Source: Escherichia coli
GTDB lineage: Bacteria > Pseudomonadota > Gammaproteobacteria > Enterobacterales > Enterobacteriaceae
Length of the DNA stretch: 49,610 nucleotides
Assembly (NCBI GenBank): GCA_036348995.1
Contig: GCA_036348995.1_4855.1
Reading direction: 5' to 3' (one strand)
Positions 3,633-49,610 of the stretch are shown one piece after another. A program made the position numbers and the translations under genes. Numbering within the stretch: position 1 is the stretch's first letter; each line of letters begins with the position of its first letter. The notes under the pieces are model-generated. The model worked only from the letters and a program-made list of their open reading frames with translations, did not search any database and was not told the origin of the DNA.

Positions 3633-4703
3633 TTACACCGCAGTTTGCGTTCCGTAACCGTTGAACACTTTGGACTTACCAGTGAAATCCTTACGGATTT
3701 GCAGGCCCATAGCAGACCACACGAGGAAGTTGAAGTTATCGTGCGGGTTGACGCGAGCTGCCGCATAGGTGGAAACGGGCTGAGCAACACGCGGGCGGAT
3801 GTACATGTCGTTGCGAACATAGCCAACGAAATGGTTGCCAGTCAGCAGGAAGTTGGTGCCAATCTTGCCGATGCGACCATTGCCGAACTGCGTGATGTAC
3901 TGCTCAACTGTGCCACCTTTGAAACCAGCCGCATCAGAATACGGACGCATGAAGCTACGACGTACCGCCGGGGAAACCCACAGAGTCACCTGCTCAAATA
4001 CGTTCTGCGCATCCAGAATTGCCTGGAAATCCTGATTGAAGAAGGTCACGATTTCGTCTGGCGTTGCGGTTTGCAGGTCGATATTCAGGCCGCTGGAAGC
4101 ATTCAGGTTAACCTGAATAGTGTTCGGGTGGTTGGTGATACCATAGCCAGTGTAAACGCCGTTCACGTTCAGAGTCTGGTCGCCAGTCAGCAGATACTGC
4201 GCCATGTCTGAACGCAGATTAAAGGTGACGTTAGCCTGATCGTCCAACAGTGGGTCAAAACCTTCAGACTGCATACCCAGCAGTTCGCGCCATTCGCGAC
4301 TGTAGCCAGTCTTGAAGATTGGAATCACATCACCAGTGTAATCGTAGCGAGTTTTATCCAAATCTTCCGGTTCCTGACCAGACAGGGTGCGCACAACCTT
4401 GCCAGCATCGGAAGCAATGCGGCTGATTGCCACAGTCTTACCAATGTTGATGTTTGCCGCGATACCCATCAGGTCAGCCATCATGTCCTGACCAGCTTCG
4501 TTGCGGAAAACGCGGGTGGTTACGTTGTCCACGTCGCGCCAGTAATCTTTCGTTACCAGTGCGGTAGCGTTCACACCGTAAGTTTTCGCCAGTTCAGCTT
4601 CTGCATTGCAGAACACCTTACGGTCGATGGTGAGATGTTTCCATTGGTCAGCCACCACTGCGGAGTTGGCTACCAAGTCTTTGGTAAAAATAATCTTTTC
4701 CAT
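3633..4703 (-). CDS. major capsid protein (putative)
   Basis: 356-aa ORF in lambda-like order protease/scaffold - decoration - capsid; no specific motif recognised. Confidence 0.6.
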   Translation of the reverse strand: MEKIIFTKDLVANSAVVADQWKHLTIDRKVFCNAEAELAKTYGVNATALVTKDYWRDVDNVTTRVFRNEAGQDMMADLMGIAANINIGKTVAISRIASDAGKVVRTLSGQEPEDLDKTRYDYTGDVIPIFKTGYSREWRELLGMQSEGFDPLLDDQANVTFNLRSDMAQYLLTGDQTLNVNGVYTGYGITNHPNTIQVNLNASSGLNIDLQTATPDEIVTFFNQDFQAILDAQNVFEQVTLWVSPAVRRSFMRPYSDAAGFKGGTVEQYITQFGNGRIGKIGTNFLLTGNHFVGYVRNDMYIRPRVAQPVSTYAAARVNPHDNFNFLVWSAMGLQIRKDFTGKSKVFNGYGTQTAV

Positions 4704-9212: not shown

Positions 9213-9440
9213 TCAACCGTTACTGGTTGAACTATAAACCACCGCAGATATAAGCTCGTCAGCCTTTTCACGACCCGCAACCTCCGCTTCAAGTGCCAGT
9301 GAACACATGGCAGTTTCCACATACTTAATGGTATCCTCGCGAACGTTAAGGATTTCCATAACCTCGCGAACTTCCTTCTGATATCTCGCTGCTATTTCTT
9401 TGTATCGCATTTCCACATCACCTTTTTCGTTGTGGTACAA
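9213..9440 (-). CDS. hypothetical protein
   Basis: ORF track; divergent from plus island at 9511. Confidence 0.35.
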   Translation of the reverse strand: MYHNEKGDVEMRYKEIAARYQKEVREVMEILNVREDTIKYVETAMCSLALEAEVAGREKADELISAVVYSSTSNG

Positions 9441-9510
9441 TCTACGTCAATAAGTATTGACTAAATGATGTAGATTGGTCAACAATAATTTTCGAAAAGG
9501 AGTAGTAAAT

Positions 9511-12728: not shown

Positions 12729-12757
12729 TTGACGTAGATTGTGTGGTAGTGCATAGT
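12729..12757 (+). promoter_or_regulatory. sigma70-like promoter (TTGACG-N17-CATAGT)
   Basis: near-duplicate of the 317..345 cassette, including the downstream GAGGTGATGAAGATG leader. Confidence 0.5.
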
Positions 12758-12789
12758 ATCTACATCAAACGGTGAATGAGGTGATGAAG

Positions 12790-13104
12790 ATGAAAATTAA
12801 CAATAGAGAAGAATTAATTAAACTGCTGGAGTTAGCGAAAGAAAAAGGCGCATTGAAGTCAATTGATGATTTGAGCTTGCGCGATATACGCATAGAGACG
12901 CCTGATGGCGCAAGATTTCGTATTGAATGGTATTGCAATATATGCGCACTGAAGAACGCTGGCTTTTCAATGTGGTTTGACTGCATTGTATTTACGCAAA
13001 CTCACCCATGCTTCCTGAATGAGATCAGGTTGTCATATCAAGGGGTGGTAACTGGCGTTATAGGTAAGCCACTAGACCATTTAACAAAGTCATTCGAGGT
13101 GTAA
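12790..13104 (+). CDS. hypothetical protein
   Basis: leader identical to that of the gene at 386. Confidence 0.45.
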   Translation: MKINNREELIKLLELAKEKGALKSIDDLSLRDIRIETPDGARFRIEWYCNICALKNAGFSMWFDCIVFTQTHPCFLNEIRLSYQGVVTGVIGKPLDHLTKSFEV

Positions 13105-18006: not shown

Positions 18007-18035
18007 TTGACGATGGCATGCTGGTGATGTAGATT
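18007..18035 (+). promoter_or_regulatory. sigma70-like promoter TTGACG-N17-TAGATT
   Basis: exact spacing; preceded by two more GTAGATT motif copies at 17929-17964. Confidence 0.55.
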
Positions 18036-39122: not shown

Positions 39123-40505
39123 TCAGACGTTGAATTTTATTGTTGTGATGTATTTGCTGCCCCACGCAGAATCTGCTTGGGGGATGGTAGCGTAATCTCC
39201 AACCGCCTGAACGTTTACCACGGATCCGTCTGAATAGGTAATGTCGATGCTTGTTGCGCCATTCATTGCTACTTTTGCGGATGAAGCCTGACGTGTAACT
39301 GGCGCTGCGTCGGTTACTATTGGTGATGTTGCGAACGCAGCTTTTTCTATTTGCATTGCACACGCAAGAACACCGCTGACACCATCCCCGGGAAAAGAGG
39401 GGGCTTGCGAATTATCGTACACCCAGGCTGCTAAAAGTAGAGAAGATGCGCCGCCGGTTTTGACCGCGACTGTTTCTGTAAATCTGTACCATCCGTTCCC
39501 GCAAGAAACGATGGTACTTTGTGCCGCGCCCCCAGAAATGGTTCCGTCGGCTAAATTTGCCCTACAATCGGAAATAAACCCCGCGTCATCGGCGGCCCGT
39601 AGGCGTGCATAATTATAGCCATTCGCCTTAGCCAAGTAACTAAGCGTGTATGTATCTCCCTCCGCAAAAGCGGAAGACACTGATTGCTGTACGATATGGT
39701 TGCCATTGGTGAGTGTTGGGGTTAAAGAAAATGCGCCGCCGTTAATAATCGAGTCGGCGATGCTAGCTACCGTTGTGCTAGCTACCGTTGTGCTAGTTTT
39801 ACTCCAGGATGAGTCAGATAATTGAGATGATTTAACTAGAATATTAGACGATGCCACCTCTGGTGGCACACGCCCAACAGCAACACCATCAATAAACGTA
39901 AGAGGCCATTCATTGGCTGCGGATTGTACAAGATTGCCGTTTCTGTTGATGTAGTAAACCTGTGGTCCATCATACACAATGCGGCTATCAAGCGTGGATG
40001 ACAGCATGTTAATTGGCATATGCAATATAGGTGTCATATAGACTTGCGGAAGTTCACGGTTAACAACTTCATCCAGCCAGCTATACCATCTGTAATCCAG
40101 TTCAACCAGAATATCATCGAACTCGTCCATCGTGTTGTTGAGTTTCTTAGCGATAACATTTCCAGTCCACGTAACCACTCCACCATCAATACTGGTCTGC
40201 ACCGGATAATCGGTAAAGTGCAGCGTCTGCTCCTGCAATCCGCTGCCGCCGAGGTCAATCATCATGGTGAACCAGTTGTTTGCCTTGTTGAGGTAGCTAG
40301 GACTACGCAACCACTGGATAAATGCACGCTCCTCCGCCAGCGTGAAAACCCACGTCAGACTCCATGTCGCCGCAATATCAGTTGTCAGCTTCTGAAAAAT
40401 TGGTGCTCCGACCGCAGGCTGGTCACTGCGGAACGGGGTTTGCTGTGTCATGTTTTTACTGGCACGCTGTGCGAGTGGCAGCCAGTCAGGGTATTTGACT
40501 ATCAT
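39123..40505 (-). CDS. minor tail protein with C-terminal extension
   Basis: 460 aa directly downstream of tape measure. Confidence 0.5.
   Translation of the reverse strand: MIVKYPDWLPLAQRASKNMTQQTPFRSDQPAVGAPIFQKLTTDIAATWSLTWVFTLAEERAFIQWLRSPSYLNKANNWFTMMIDLGGSGLQEQTLHFTDYPVQTSIDGGVVTWTGNVIAKKLNNTMDEFDDILVELDYRWYSWLDEVVNRELPQVYMTPILHMPINMLSSTLDSRIVYDGPQVYYINRNGNLVQSAANEWPLTFIDGVAVGRVPPEVASSNILVKSSQLSDSSWSKTSTTVASTTVASIADSIINGGAFSLTPTLTNGNHIVQQSVSSAFAEGDTYTLSYLAKANGYNYARLRAADDAGFISDCRANLADGTISGGAAQSTIVSCGNGWYRFTETVAVKTGGASSLLLAAWVYDNSQAPSFPGDGVSGVLACAMQIEKAAFATSPIVTDAAPVTRQASSAKVAMNGATSIDITYSDGSVVNVQAVGDYATIPQADSAWGSKYITTIKFNV
39771..39806. repeat. tandem 15-bp repeat (2.4 copies) inside minor tail gene
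   Basis: TGCTAGCTACCGTTG x2 plus TGCTAG; encodes repeated TTVAS. Confidence 0.8.
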
Positions 40506-40618
40506 GTGGAATCCTCTTTGCTTTGTTGATGTATTTTAGCACGGCGCAAGTTTCACCACTCCATCATGAGCTGGTTTAAAATGCATCCGTTCCATGATGT
40601 TTTGCCATCTAAAATAGA

Positions 40619-40648
40619 TTGCAAAAATTCTACATTTGAATGTAGGAT
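40619..40648 (+). promoter_or_regulatory. promoter with palindromic operator CTACATT-TG-AATGTAG
   Basis: inverted repeat at 40630..40645 between TTGCAA and TAGGAT. Confidence 0.45.
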
Positions 40649-40679
40649 TTAATTGTCACATTAAACAGGAGAAATAATC

Positions 40680-41250
40680 ATGAAACTGCAAACATTAGAG
40701 TTCCCGTACGGAGAGATCACTTTCGACCGTGAAAATTTTATTAACGTTAATGAGCTTGTTAACCAGATGAACCGCTGGAGACTGGATAATGGGATGGGGA
40801 CAAGAGAAATACGACAGGTAATGGCAACTGATGCATTTAAGGTCTTGCTTGCATCTGGCTGTATATATAGCAGAGCAATACAGCACATATTTCCATTTCC
40901 TTGTCATCGACCGATTCATTACGCAGAGACAGGTTGAGTTGCGAAATATTGGTGCGGTAAGTTTCGTGGAACTTAATGCTGCCGTCAGCAGAATGCTTGA
41001 ACGCACTGAGGGTAGAATTGGTCATAGTGGGCATTTCATTCAGGTGGCAAAGTCAGTCAAGGAGTCGATAGATATCCGTGAAGTTACTGGGTTTGACACA
41101 TGGGACTCTCAGGATGCAAAAACTAACCAGTTACGCAGTGATATCCAGAAGTCTCTTGTCACACTTCTGGATATGGAAGCGGTCAACTCATGGGATGAAC
41201 TGAAAGAAACGATACCGAGGGTCGTACGTAAATGCGCTGATAAGATTTAA
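40680..41250 (+). pseudogene. plus-strand moron gene split across two frames at a TATATATA run
   Basis: frame A 40680..40937 and frame B 40831..41250 overlap by 107 nt; junction near 40872-40880. Confidence 0.3.
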
Positions 41251-41254
41251 AGTA

Positions 41255-41280
41255 AAGCCCCGTGAGGGGCTTCTTTTTAC
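41255..41280. terminator. bidirectional intrinsic terminator
   Basis: hairpin AAGCCCC-GTGA-GGGGCTT plus T-run. Confidence 0.7.
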
Positions 41281-43655
41281 TCTGTTGCTCTCCTGTTGGT
41301 ATTAAAGTTCCTTGAGATGGATTGACTCATTGGGCCGCCTTCATTCATATCGGATATAAATGTCTCAATAGTTATCGAGCCATCACCGTTATCAGTGGCT
41401 CTGCTTGTTGCGCTGGCATTGCTTGAATTATTGTAAACATTATTATAAACCACAACTCCGCCACCTCCACCGGAAATATCCTTATTGCTGATAACCTTTC
41501 CTGAGTTACCAGGTATCATGTATTGCCTGCCAGTGCTCGCCTGGAATATTTCTGGTGCGTTTCCCTCGCCAACTTCGTACATGCTTCCGGCGCTAACAGG
41601 ACCGCCATTCTTGCGCTTGCCAGCAATCCCCATCGCCAGCGCCCCAAGGACAGCACCTACACCAATTGCAGCCGCCCCTCCGAATGAACCGATTGATGCT
41701 ACGATTGCCGCTGGAGTCCATGCTGCAGTAGTGGTTGCTGCCGCCGCAGTGGATGCTGCTGTTGTGGTTGCCAGCCCTGCTGTTTGCGCCGCTGTGGTTG
41801 TCGCTGTGGCTGCAACCTGAGCAGTCTGCCCCATGACCGCAGATTTAACCCACTGCACGCCCATTTCAACAAAGCTGTTTACCAGAGAATTCAGCACCGT
41901 AGAGCCGAGGCTGCGCATGGCATCCTGAACGCTCATTGTTCCGGTAAGCAATCCGGTAATGCTGTTTGACGCTGTGCTCATCGCTGAATCAAGAGCAGTG
42001 CCGAACAGTTGCGCCCCGAGGCTTTGCTGCTGCCATTCAGCCCACATAGCATCCATTCGCTGCTGGCGATATTGTGCCTCAATTGCTGCGCGAGTCCGCT
42101 CAATCTCCGTGATTTTCTGCGGATATGCTGCGGCGTAGGCGTCAAGGTCAGCCATGCGTTGCTGATATTCACTATCAATGCCAGTAGTTGGCGACGCAAT
42201 GGCGCGCAATCCCTGATATGATTTTTCTACGCGCTGCTTTTCTTTCTCCGCAGCTGCCTGTTCCTTCAGTGCATTCTTCTGGTCCCAAATCTTAGCCGCG
42301 TACTCACCAGCCAGTTTTATTTGCTCCTGAGTGGCAGCCTTGCCAAGCGATTGTTGCGCGTTGAGAATTGCTTGTTCTCGGGATAGTTCGCTGGTAGATG
42401 TGGCATTGAGCATGGTTTGCTGGCGTAATTTTTCCAGCTTTTCAGCTACTGACTCAGCTTGCCGTTCTTCGGCGCTTTTTCCCTTTCCTTTTCCTTTTTT
42501 GTCTTTTGTTGGCGCTTTAGGCACTGTCAAATGCGCCTGAGCTTTTGCTGCTTCTCCTGTTGACTTAGTTACGGCATCCATATCTGAGACCAAAGTTGCA
42601 GCCTGATTTGCCACCGCCGCTATTGCCTGATTTTGTGCCGCCCATCCGTCAATGCCAACCCATGACCAAGTTCTAGCCCTGCGACTGAACATTTCGGCTG
42701 TTGACGTCAAATCAGAAATAACCTCTGCTGCACTTACAGTTTGACCAGTAAGTCTGTTTATTGCTGAAGTGATAGAATCAATAACAGAAACAAAAGTGGA
42801 GCTGGCTCCGGTTGCATCGTTTATGCTTGCTATCATTTTTGCAAATGATGTTTCAAGACTGCCAGTAGCCTGAGATATAGAGCGCGGTAGTTTTGCGAAC
42901 TCAGCATTGACGACGCTTGTTCTGTCCTGAATAGCGTTCAGCGCATCTTCTGCCGTCAGTTTTCCGTCGAGCATTCTGGCACGAAGTTCACCCATTGAAA
43001 TGCCAAGTCCAGCGGCTATCTGGCGTGCAAGTTCAGGCATCTGTTCAAGGATGGAGTTGAATTCTTCGGCGCGGATTGTGCCAGATGCTATTGATTGACC
43101 GAACTGACGTAATGCGTTCGCCATTTCTTCGGTTGATGACCCACCGATTCGACCTATTTTTTGCAGGGTATCTGTAAGGTTAAGAACCTGCGCATTTGTA
43201 GCGCCAGCCTCTTTCAGTGATGACGTCAATGTTTCCCACAGCTTCGTGGTATCACTCAGGCTTGCGCCAGTGGTTGAGGCGATATTTGTCAGCGAATTGA
43301 AGGTTTCCTTCGCGGTCTCAGCATCTCCTGTTAACCTTTTTATCCTTGCCTGTAGCTGCGTCATGTTATCAGCTATATCAAGGAAAGCCTTACCCCATCC
43401 AATGATTAATGACACTGAGATTGCGCCAGCAAGCATCGACATGCTGGTTTTAAGCCCTGAAGCTGCGCTGCCAGCATTCTTCATTCCGCTGCCAGCATTT
43501 CTGGCATTTTTATCCAGTTTACCAAGCGCACTTGTGGTTTTGTTGGTTGATGATTCAAGGTCATCCAAAGTCTTATTGGCTGTTGTCGCGCCAGCTTTCA
43601 GACCTTTAACATCCATCCCGACTTCATAGACAATTCCGCCGACTTCTTCAGCCAT
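41277..43655 (-). CDS. tail tape measure protein
   Basis: 792 aa, Ala/Gly/Gln-rich helical repeats, between chaperone-like and minor tail genes. Confidence 0.85.
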   Translation of the reverse strand: MAEEVGGIVYEVGMDVKGLKAGATTANKTLDDLESSTNKTTSALGKLDKNARNAGSGMKNAGSAASGLKTSMSMLAGAISVSLIIGWGKAFLDIADNMTQLQARIKRLTGDAETAKETFNSLTNIASTTGASLSDTTKLWETLTSSLKEAGATNAQVLNLTDTLQKIGRIGGSSTEEMANALRQFGQSIASGTIRAEEFNSILEQMPELARQIAAGLGISMGELRARMLDGKLTAEDALNAIQDRTSVVNAEFAKLPRSISQATGSLETSFAKMIASINDATGASSTFVSVIDSITSAINRLTGQTVSAAEVISDLTSTAEMFSRRARTWSWVGIDGWAAQNQAIAAVANQAATLVSDMDAVTKSTGEAAKAQAHLTVPKAPTKDKKGKGKGKSAEERQAESVAEKLEKLRQQTMLNATSTSELSREQAILNAQQSLGKAATQEQIKLAGEYAAKIWDQKNALKEQAAAEKEKQRVEKSYQGLRAIASPTTGIDSEYQQRMADLDAYAAAYPQKITEIERTRAAIEAQYRQQRMDAMWAEWQQQSLGAQLFGTALDSAMSTASNSITGLLTGTMSVQDAMRSLGSTVLNSLVNSFVEMGVQWVKSAVMGQTAQVAATATTTAAQTAGLATTTAASTAAAATTTAAWTPAAIVASIGSFGGAAAIGVGAVLGALAMGIAGKRKNGGPVSAGSMYEVGEGNAPEIFQASTGRQYMIPGNSGKVISNKDISGGGGGVVVYNNVYNNSSNASATSRATDNGDGSITIETFISDMNEGGPMSQSISRNFNTNRRATE

Positions 43656-44411: not shown

Positions 44412-44440
44412 TTGACACCTGCAAGGCGGTGATGTAGATT
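44412..44440 (+). promoter_or_regulatory. sigma70-like promoter TTGACA-N17-TAGATT
   Basis: exact spacing; GGTGATGTAGATT block. Confidence 0.55.
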
Positions 44441-49192: not shown

Positions 49193-49609
49193 TTATAGAT
49201 TTGAATCAGCGAAAAAACAATGGCGACCACGCCAAGAATAATGTCCAATTTCGCCGCCCCATTTAAAAGTGATGGAAAGGATGAACAGATGGATGCCGAT
49301 AATAATAAATGCGTACTGCGCATGAAGCGGCGTTTCTACAGGCGTGATAAATTCCCATACGAATGACTCTATCGCAACCAGCCATTCGTAAAGGCTCATT
49401 GTCAGCACGCAGAGCGCCATCTTTGTACTTTTGCGCAGTGCAATAGCCGGGAACAACCAGACCATAGACTGCGCAAGGTAATACAAATATTCGGCGGGAA
49501 ATGAATCAGCAAGCACCCATCCAAGATACACAGACATCGCCATTACCGGAATGAACACCAGAAACGCGACCATGCCAGTGCAAGCGAAACCCAGCACATA
49601 CATGATCAT
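49193..49609 (-). CDS. multi-pass membrane protein, 5-prime end runs off the window into the terminal repeat
   Basis: 3-4 hydrophobic segments; in copy 1 an upstream in-frame ATG lies at 148-150. Confidence 0.4.
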   Translation of the reverse strand: MIMYVLGFACTGMVAFLVFIPVMAMSVYLGWVLADSFPAEYLYYLAQSMVWLFPAIALRKSTKMALCVLTMSLYEWLVAIESFVWEFITPVETPLHAQYAFIIIGIHLFILSITFKWGGEIGHYSWRGRHCFFADSNL

Positions 49610-49610
49610 G
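49484..49610. repeat. terminal direct repeat, copy 2 (identical to 1..127)
   Basis: exact 127-nt match to window start. Confidence 0.95.

Follow-up and report, generated by a model that had tools for sequence, protein, structure and literature searches.

A KilA-N gene probably disrupted by a recent 80-nt deletion in a tail-module moron of a phage genome, and a promoter dyad proposed as its operator

In this study, we asked what kind of gene is read in two frames within the tail module of a phage genome, and which factor may control it. The locus lies at positions 40619–41280 of a stretch of 49,610 nucleotides (nt) from an Escherichia coli assembly (GCA_036348995.1, contig GCA_036348995.1_4855.1), and the whole of this stretch is referred to here as the window. 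An initial annotation, made from the letters alone, had described the segment as an operator-controlled moron whose coding region runs from 40680 to 40937 in one frame and from 40831 to 41250 in another. This arrangement is present: the open reading frame (ORF) in frame A, which starts with ATG 40680 and encodes 85 amino acids (aa), and that in frame B, which encodes 139 aa, both lie on the + strand, offset by one base in register and sharing 107 nt. A programmed frameshift, phase-variable slippage, a sequencing error and a recent pseudogene had been offered as explanations, and it is the last of these that fits best. We regard it as highly probable that the split gene arose recently, by an 80-nt deletion, from a conserved and already-annotated KilA-N gene, and that it is in practice a null allele, that is, a pseudogene.

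The evidence comes from the comparison with intact relatives. A megablast search of phage genomes with positions 40560–41290 returned 23 records that cover at least 80% of the query. The top 21 of these have 90–100% coverage and 94.6–99% identity, and in all of them with the exception of one end-cut record the match falls into two pieces, such that 801–811 nt of the record correspond to 722–731 nt of the query; the two SB28 records (85.6%) match only from the coding region onward. In the close relatives the locus is one gene of 651 nt encoding 216 aa, as seen in four aligned sequences and, judged by hit geometry, in approximately 23 records. The alignment with KFS-SE2 and Vi II-E1 is free of insertions and deletions except at one point: between 40842 and 40843, the window lacks exactly 80 nt. 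As 80 is not a multiple of three, the sequence downstream of the junction is shifted by one base, and the loss together with this shift makes a single gene read as two overlapping ORFs. On the 5′ side, codons 1–54 of the KilA-N gene (40680–40842, + strand) are native, with no differences to KFS-SE2 in 163 nt. From 40843 to 40937, frame A continues as an out-of-frame tail of 31 non-native residues followed by TGA, and shows no similarity to the homologues after residue 54. The native codons 82–216 and the stop codon occupy 40843–41250 and are read in frame B, with 99% identity to residues 82–216 in a tblastn search. What is missing at the junction (40842–40843) are residues 55–81 (DFKAECEKQLGIDSAIKSTRGRNGSTF), which form the core of the KilA-N/APSES-like domain, and the two window ORFs match positions 1–61 and 83–216 of the 217-position profile of PHROG 6095. 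We propose that the loss of 80 nt between 40842 and 40843 removed the DNA-binding core and shifted the frame, in which case the expected product would be a 54-residue N-terminal stub that ends in 31 junk residues and, if there is a second one, a C-terminal fragment whose initiation is poor.

The intact form of the gene is well preserved elsewhere. Among 5.8 billion proteins, 35 homologue clusters were found, and their members are all 216–218 aa long except for contig-end fragments and one frameshifted copy; the homologues are thus single continuous ORFs, and a pair of independent overlapping genes, the observation that would have spoken for two separate genes here, was not seen in the relatives. 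Compared with KFS-SE2, the codon differences (synonymous/nonsynonymous) number 11/1 in E1, 24/1 in ASO78B and 58/26 in SB28, and since they are overwhelmingly synonymous the gene appears to be under purifying selection in the relatives. The window agrees with KFS-SE2 at 570 of the 571 coding nucleotides that it retains, the sole exception being T40843 at the junction, which replaces a G of the relatives, and this identity argues that no decay has taken place since the deletion. Searches for the junction sequence in IMG/VR, in a set with one genome per GTDB species and in the JGI metagenomes gave no match, the intact junction is present in IMG/VR, and look-ups of the exact products of both window ORFs found no gene on record. 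Because the junction occurs in no other searched assembly, the lesion seems to be private to this genome. An independent disruption of the same gene family was seen in Salmonella phage MET_P1_001_43 (OP389270.1, 2242–2893; locus L003 below), where one extra base in an A-run, at a site different from that of the window lesion, splits the gene call into parts of 93 aa and 130 aa.

Is the deletion biological, or did it arise when the contig was built? The sequencing error of the initial annotation survives in this form as a rival explanation, according to which the 651-nt gene is intact in the phage itself and lost 80 nt only in assembly or through a minority variant path in the consensus. It is favoured by the absence of the junction from every other public assembly searched and of both exact products from the record, and the 1-nt frameshift in the A-run of MET_P1_001_43 looks like a sequencing error in the same gene. 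Two further observations weigh against a real deletion. The identity of the retained sequence to KFS-SE2, which lacks any decay following inactivation, is equally expected if the lesion is an artefact; and the end points of the deletion share no microhomology and one odd base, either non-templated or substituted, is located at the junction, so that no simple deletion mechanism is evident. On the other side, neither short reads nor long reads typically lead to the erroneous loss of 80 nt from sequence that is unique and non-repetitive. When the ORFs of at least 80 aa of SB28 and Akira were searched against the window, 95 matched, and the KilA-N gene was the only internally split one among them, the other flagged split being a gene that runs across the contig ends. 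The contig moreover closes with an exact 127-bp overlap, and a second private change is located in the putative operator of the same cassette. Such an exact terminal overlap is what remains when a circular or circularly permuted genome has been assembled cleanly from short reads by a de Bruijn method. The repeat occupies positions 1–127 and 49484–49610, one gene runs across both ends, and the window has the appearance of a complete assembly closed into a circle, approximately 49,483 bp in length and with a k-mer-sized overlap. Taken together, we consider an artefact unlikely and believe that the deletion is very probably real.

A real deletion need not have silenced the locus altogether. The C-terminal domain might be made on its own from ATG 40831 in frame B and act as a DNA-binding-deficient effector or in a dominant-negative manner. 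Such a product would fit with the intact preservation of residues 82–216, with the C-terminal domain being the most conserved part of the family and with its occurrence in proteins that have other N-terminal parts. However, ATG 40831 is not a start codon in the intact relatives, in which it is an out-of-frame accident inside the codons T-D-A; it is preceded by a weak AGGT 11 nt upstream, and it is located 106 nt before the stop of frame A, so that translational coupling is not expected. Free-standing homologues of the C-terminal domain are also lacking in the databases, except as contig-end fragments or frameshifted copies. A functional frame B product is on these grounds very improbable, and the reading as a null allele is the one we follow here.

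The initial annotation had placed the junction between the frames at a TA repeat, and this is not where they part. As compared with the intact relatives, the frame changes at the 80-nt gap (40842/40843), and the TATATATA run (40862–40869, + strand), 19 nt downstream of the deletion junction, codes for V-Y-I-A (GTA TAT ATA GCA). The length of the run is identical in the window and in the intact KFS-SE2, E1, ASO78B and Segz_1, and the run is broken by synonymous changes in SB28 and at loci L013, L120 and L003. The idea that a programmed +1/−2 ribosomal frameshift or phase-variable slippage at TATATATA joins frames A and B, which draws on the position of the repeat within the overlap of the two frames, can be dismissed, because the gap upstream accounts fully for the frame change and the run is ordinary coding sequence, constant in length in intact relatives and not conserved in its nucleotides in more distant ones, while the homologues are single ORFs and a fusion product would still be without 27 core residues of the DNA-binding domain. 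As a phase-variable locus the gene was rejected since the tract does not set the frame, and as a programmed frameshift gene since the two-frame arrangement is not conserved and the junction has no conserved slippery sequence. There is hence no recoding signal at this place in the tail module. For the annotation, the two ORFs would become one disrupted KilA-N gene, rather than two genes, a frameshift site or an ‘amidase’ (see below), and the window phage would be a natural knock-out in which to ask what the cassette does for the phage.

What, then, is the protein that has been lost? The intact 216-aa protein has two domains, a KilA-N/APSES-like domain at the N terminus and a helical domain at the C terminus that is nearly invariant across the family. 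With a full-length close homologue, the Pfam KilA-N profile (PF04383) gives E=2.4e-4 and 21.3 bits as compared with a curated cut-off of 23.8, and the distant members P0039 and P0063 exceed this cut-off with 31.1 and 26.4 bits, respectively; the two window ORFs taken singly have no KilA-N match in Pfam. An AlphaFold2 model built from 28 homologues (mean predicted local distance difference test score, pLDDT, of 82.7) predicts an alpha/beta N-terminal domain at residues ~10–110, with an APSES/KilA-N-like fold, and an all-helical C-terminal domain. The deletion removes the modelled helix 51–64 and both strands 70–72 and 80–82, and would thus leave no intact domain in the window copy. A Foldseek search against the PDB gave nothing significant, with no hit below E=0.07, NCBIfam gave no match, and nothing specific was found in the literature on this gene in Salmonella phages. 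Several members are named ‘KilA-N domain-containing protein’ in UniRef and NCBI. RefSeq and PHROG 6095 name homologues ‘amidase’ (category lysis; for example YP_010053510.1 and YP_001742071.1), whereas P1 KilA is the similar protein named in the original E1 record. Domain and fold searches provided no support for an amidase domain or fold, so that a function as amidase or in lysis was rejected, and the ‘amidase’ label appears to be a propagated mis-annotation.

The C-terminal domain extends the family further. A phmmer search with this part of the protein found approximately 50 distant representatives with around 30% identity, in which the domain is always located at the C terminus. In a Pfam scan of ten of them, KilA-N was found upstream of the C-terminal domain in five, and a GIY-YIG or T5orf172 nuclease domain at the N terminus in four, two of which also have KilA-N. 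The four are P0039, P0053, P0055 and P0072 (~290–330 aa), and KilA-N is located between the nuclease domain and the C-terminal domain in P0039 and P0055. From these architectures, the pair of KilA-N and C-terminal domain behaves as a DNA-targeting module, which suggests that homing-type endonucleases, too, use it to reach their DNA targets.

A protein of this kind raises the question of its DNA target, and a candidate is found in the promoter of its own gene. The near-perfect palindrome that had been noticed there, CTACATT-TG-AATGTAG, is in fact an exact 7+2+7 palindrome at 40630–40645. It forms the centre of a 26-bp dyad (40625–40650; AAATTCTACATT-TG-AATGTAGGATTT), the putative operator, which is a 12+2+12 repeat with one mismatch at G40646 and spans the spacer and the −10 element of the promoter. 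The −35 hexamer is TTGCAA (40619–40624, + strand) and the −10 hexamer TAGGAT (40643–40648, + strand; TAGAAT in the relatives). A consensus scan of KFS-SE2 lists TTGCAA-N18-TAGAAT at the homologous place, and the window version, TTGCAA-N18-TAGGAT, falls below the threshold of 9/12 matches that the KFS-SE2 version passes. In KFS-SE2, E1 and ASO78B the dyad is a perfect 12+2+12 repeat (AAATTCTACATT-TG-AATGTAGAATTT), which begins right after the −35 element and contains the −10 element TAGAAT. Within the window the dyad occurs only once. The palindrome alone is within chance, as arms of 12 nt with at most one mismatch give approximately 1.3 matches in simulated sequences of the size of the window, and the significance of the dyad therefore comes from the comparison with the relatives.

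This comparison shows that homologous cassettes carry other dyads with the same 26-bp span and at the same distance (−55) from the ATG. The dyad is AAATGGTATAT-N4-ATATACCATTT in SB28, L007, L176 and L188, a 16+2+16 version of the same type in L013, L014 and L120, AAATACTAC-N8-GTAGTATTT in L009 and GAATACTAT-N8-GTAGTATTC in L020. The promoter geometry, with 17–18 nt between the −35 and −10 elements, is common to all cassette lineages, and in all lineages but one the dyad lies over the spacer and the −10 element. In an ungapped alignment of eight distinct dyad versions, 95.8% of the arm positions pair, with changes on both sides in five of the 12 pairs; the observed covariation was reached by none of 500 column shuffles, and pairing falls to 25–51% when the partner is slid by one to three columns. 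The invariant positions are T1, A2, A5 and T6 of the −10 hexamer and their mirror images. These compensatory changes, which keep the symmetry of the dyad, support the operator that had been claimed in the initial annotation, and the 26-bp dyads look like protein-binding operators. Since the right arm contains the −10 element, the dyad is located upstream of the predicted transcription start, which argues for an operator at the DNA level; that the dyad acts as an RNA hairpin in the transcript of the moron is for this reason unlikely. The dyad would be present in an antisense read-through RNA from the tail operon. The window differs from its relatives by a private A→G change at 40646, which affects pair 5/22, a class-discriminating position of the dyad, and converts the −10 element from TAGAAT to TAGGAT; the G40646 variant is absent from IMG/VR, where the A version is present. 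Another inverted repeat, with 12-nt arms and one mismatch (TTTTGCCATCTA-AAA-TAGATTGCAAAA, 40600–40626), overlaps the −35 element of the moron and is more symmetric in the window than in the relatives owing to a private C→A change at 40618, and a third, also with 12-nt arms and one mismatch, is found within the coding region at 41142–41173. Both of these repeats could be due to chance.

Which protein would bind the dyad? The class of the dyad tracks residues 41–50 of the adjacent KilA-N domain, and the C-terminal domain is nearly invariant throughout. The class A dyad (CTACATT..AATGTAG), which is that of the window, pairs with the stretch TRE[IL]RQVMAT, the class B dyad (TGGTATAT..ATATACCA) with FKHLRQLMTT and the class C dyad (ATACTAC-N8-GTAGTAT) with [TE]KNLSQLL[AS]T. 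Three of these pairings were predicted from the protein before the DNA was seen: P0011 was expected to have a class A dyad, P0032 one of class C and the P0012/P0014 type one of class B. The class A and class C predictions were confirmed at the P0011 and P0032 loci, and class B was confirmed at other loci with the same stretch. Scans of IMG/VR with dyad cores of 14–16 bases gave mostly chance matches, and only the seven loci that carried the gene were used. Classes A and B are each found in two backbones, namely in E1-like phages, where the cassette occupies the tape-measure site, and in Jersey-like phages, where it occupies the portal/Mu-F site, from which it follows that the cognate factor travels with the cassette, and the only gene of the cassette is that for the KilA-N protein. 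According to the mechanism that we propose, a dimer of the cassette’s own KilA-N protein would bind the 26-bp dyad and repress its own synthesis by occluding the promoter.

Several observations weigh against such autoregulation. The dyad and the N-terminal stretch are only 100–200 bp apart, and plain linkage could give their co-occurrence; in the Jersey-like class that is most abundant (QPRNLAQILKT, L003), no more than a weak 6+6+6 repeat is seen; and at L040 a class A dyad with a damaged −35 element is located directly upstream of a class B gene. At this last locus an intact class B promoter is found 59 nt further up. Taking both sides together, we lean slightly towards the view that the KilA-N protein binds the dyad and regulates its own gene, with clearly less assurance than we attach to the deletion. 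The L040 region (3983–4140, − strand) consists of a duplicated promoter unit of approximately 60 nt, with the class B dyad in the first copy and the class A dyad in the second, and at L009 (1335–1500) a class-A-like dyad and a remnant of a ribosome-binding site are found upstream of a class C promoter. These tandem promoter scars point to cassette exchange by recombination.

More tentatively still, the 216-aa KilA-N family may be a mobile, self-contained regulatory cassette, in which a dimer acts on the dyad and at least three operator/recognition classes, readable from residues ~41–50, have been swapped between backbones. If this is true, it would define the DNA targets of a phage KilA-N domain and what determines its specificity, and the window phage would combine two natural mutations, the loss of the DNA-binding core and a change at one position of the operator. 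The pairing of three operator classes with three variants of the KilA-N stretch is in any case a hypothesis that is cheap to test, for a domain that is poorly characterized.

It had further been suggested that the half-site ATGTAG of the palindrome recurs in a genome-wide promoter block and that both are read by a shared DNA-binding regulator. The first part of this suggestion is correct: with up to two mismatches, the 12-mer GTGATGTAGATT has 23 sites in the window as compared with 4.9 expected. The promoters in which these sites lie read TTGAC(A/G)-N17-TAGATT, and some of the −35 elements are overlapped by a related element, TTGACGTAGATT. The shared regulator is not supported. In SB28, whose moron carries the unrelated class B dyad, GTGATGTAGATT occurs 19 times (4.0 expected), and in Akira, which is without a moron homologue, 22 times (4.3 expected), from which we conclude that the motif occurs irrespective of the moron cassette. 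The sharing of ATGTAGA(A/T)T most likely reflects the −10 region (TAGAAT/TAGATT) that the promoters of this phage group have in common. The two elements GTGATGTAGATT and TTGACGTAGATT are four to five times over-represented (e.g. at 18024–18035, 44429–44440, 9439–9476 and 12729–12792), in some cases as inverted pairs 16–18 nt apart in divergent promoter regions, and may represent a promoter or regulator signature specific to the phage group.

As for the surroundings of the gene, the unit lies on the + strand between two tail genes of the − strand, the tape measure gene (41277–43655; Pfam TMP_3, E=3e-58) and, on the other flank, a gene for a tail protein of 460 aa (39123–40505). A ribosome-binding site, AGGAGA (40667–40672, + strand), is located 7 nt before the ATG and is conserved in the relatives. 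The unit ends with a predicted intrinsic terminator (41255–41279, + strand), made up of the AAGCCCCGTGAGGGGCTT hairpin at 41255–41272 and a T-run, and the convergent tape measure gene shares it, tail to tail. In KFS-SE2 the terminator is predicted for either strand, and the ASO78B record likewise annotates it on both. The Akira genome has no moron homologue, and nothing separates its tape measure gene from the next tail gene; in the window lineage, the cassette is inserted at this junction on the opposite strand. In Jersey-like phages it is found between the portal and Mu-F-like genes, and in the metagenomic phage L011 upstream of the small terminase gene. With a predicted promoter and terminator of its own, its presence or absence between otherwise collinear relatives and its other contexts in other phages, the unit deserves the name of a moron in the tail module that it had been given. 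The 460-aa tail gene product is itself a mosaic tail protein: its first 152 aa are 91% identical to a KFS-SE2 protein of 156 aa (tail tip M-like), and the best matches of its C-terminal extension of 305 aa are proteins of Kagunavirus and E. coli phages, with up to 91% identity. Approximately 25 nt upstream of its start, an extended −10-like element, TGCTAAAAT (40541–40533, − strand), is found, and this block is kept in all moron-bearing relatives, including SB28, whose remaining intergenic region differs. It may be a restart promoter that allows transcription of the tail genes to continue past the insert.

The locus can finally be compared with several known systems. The programmed −1 frameshift of tail assembly chaperones (lambda G/GT type) is found just upstream of tape measure genes. 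The locus has in common with it only the neighbourhood, beside the tape measure gene within the tail module, and the look of two overlapping frames; it differs from it by the opposite strand, the lack of a slippery site, the single-ORF homologues and a frame change that is caused by a deletion. With the morons of lambdoid and other siphophages, which are independent units of promoter, gene and terminator within late operons, it shares a predicted sigma-70-type promoter and intrinsic terminator of its own, an orientation opposite to the tail module and absence from a related phage. However, the host phages here are without an integrase in the annotations examined, so that it is not a lysogenic-conversion gene, and in the window the cargo is broken. 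BstA is a prophage-encoded abortive-infection protein of Salmonella phage BTP1 with a KilA-N-like N-terminal domain and a cognate DNA element for self-immunity (PMC8585504). A cognate DNA element in its own locus would be the feature that the moron shares with BstA. In contrast, the moron protein has 216 aa as compared with about 307 aa, its element is a promoter dyad and that of BstA intragenic, and its family occurs in phages without an integrase in the annotations examined. PADLOC gave no BstA match and only a weak partial match to PDC-S22 (E=0.0017), and membership in the BstA family was rejected; no sign of a role in defence was seen.

The closest comparisons are with other proteins that contain KilA-N. 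KilA-N proteins (PF04383) occur in phages and large DNA viruses, are named after the N-terminal domain of P1 KilA and share their fold with fungal APSES factors such as Mbp1. Their profile is matched, just under the curated cut-off, by the N-terminal ~105 residues of the intact homologue; here the helical C-terminal domain is separate and unnamed, and the window copy is without residues 55–81. Among the homing endonucleases with GIY-YIG or T5orf172 domains and KilA-N, distant relatives of the C-terminal domain (~30% identity) are fusions of a GIY-YIG or T5orf172 domain with KilA-N and the C-terminal domain. The 216-aa family differs from these in that it has no nuclease domain; the likeness lies in the cassette itself, which is present in some phages and absent from others, sits between conserved structural genes on the opposite strand and is found in several backbones.

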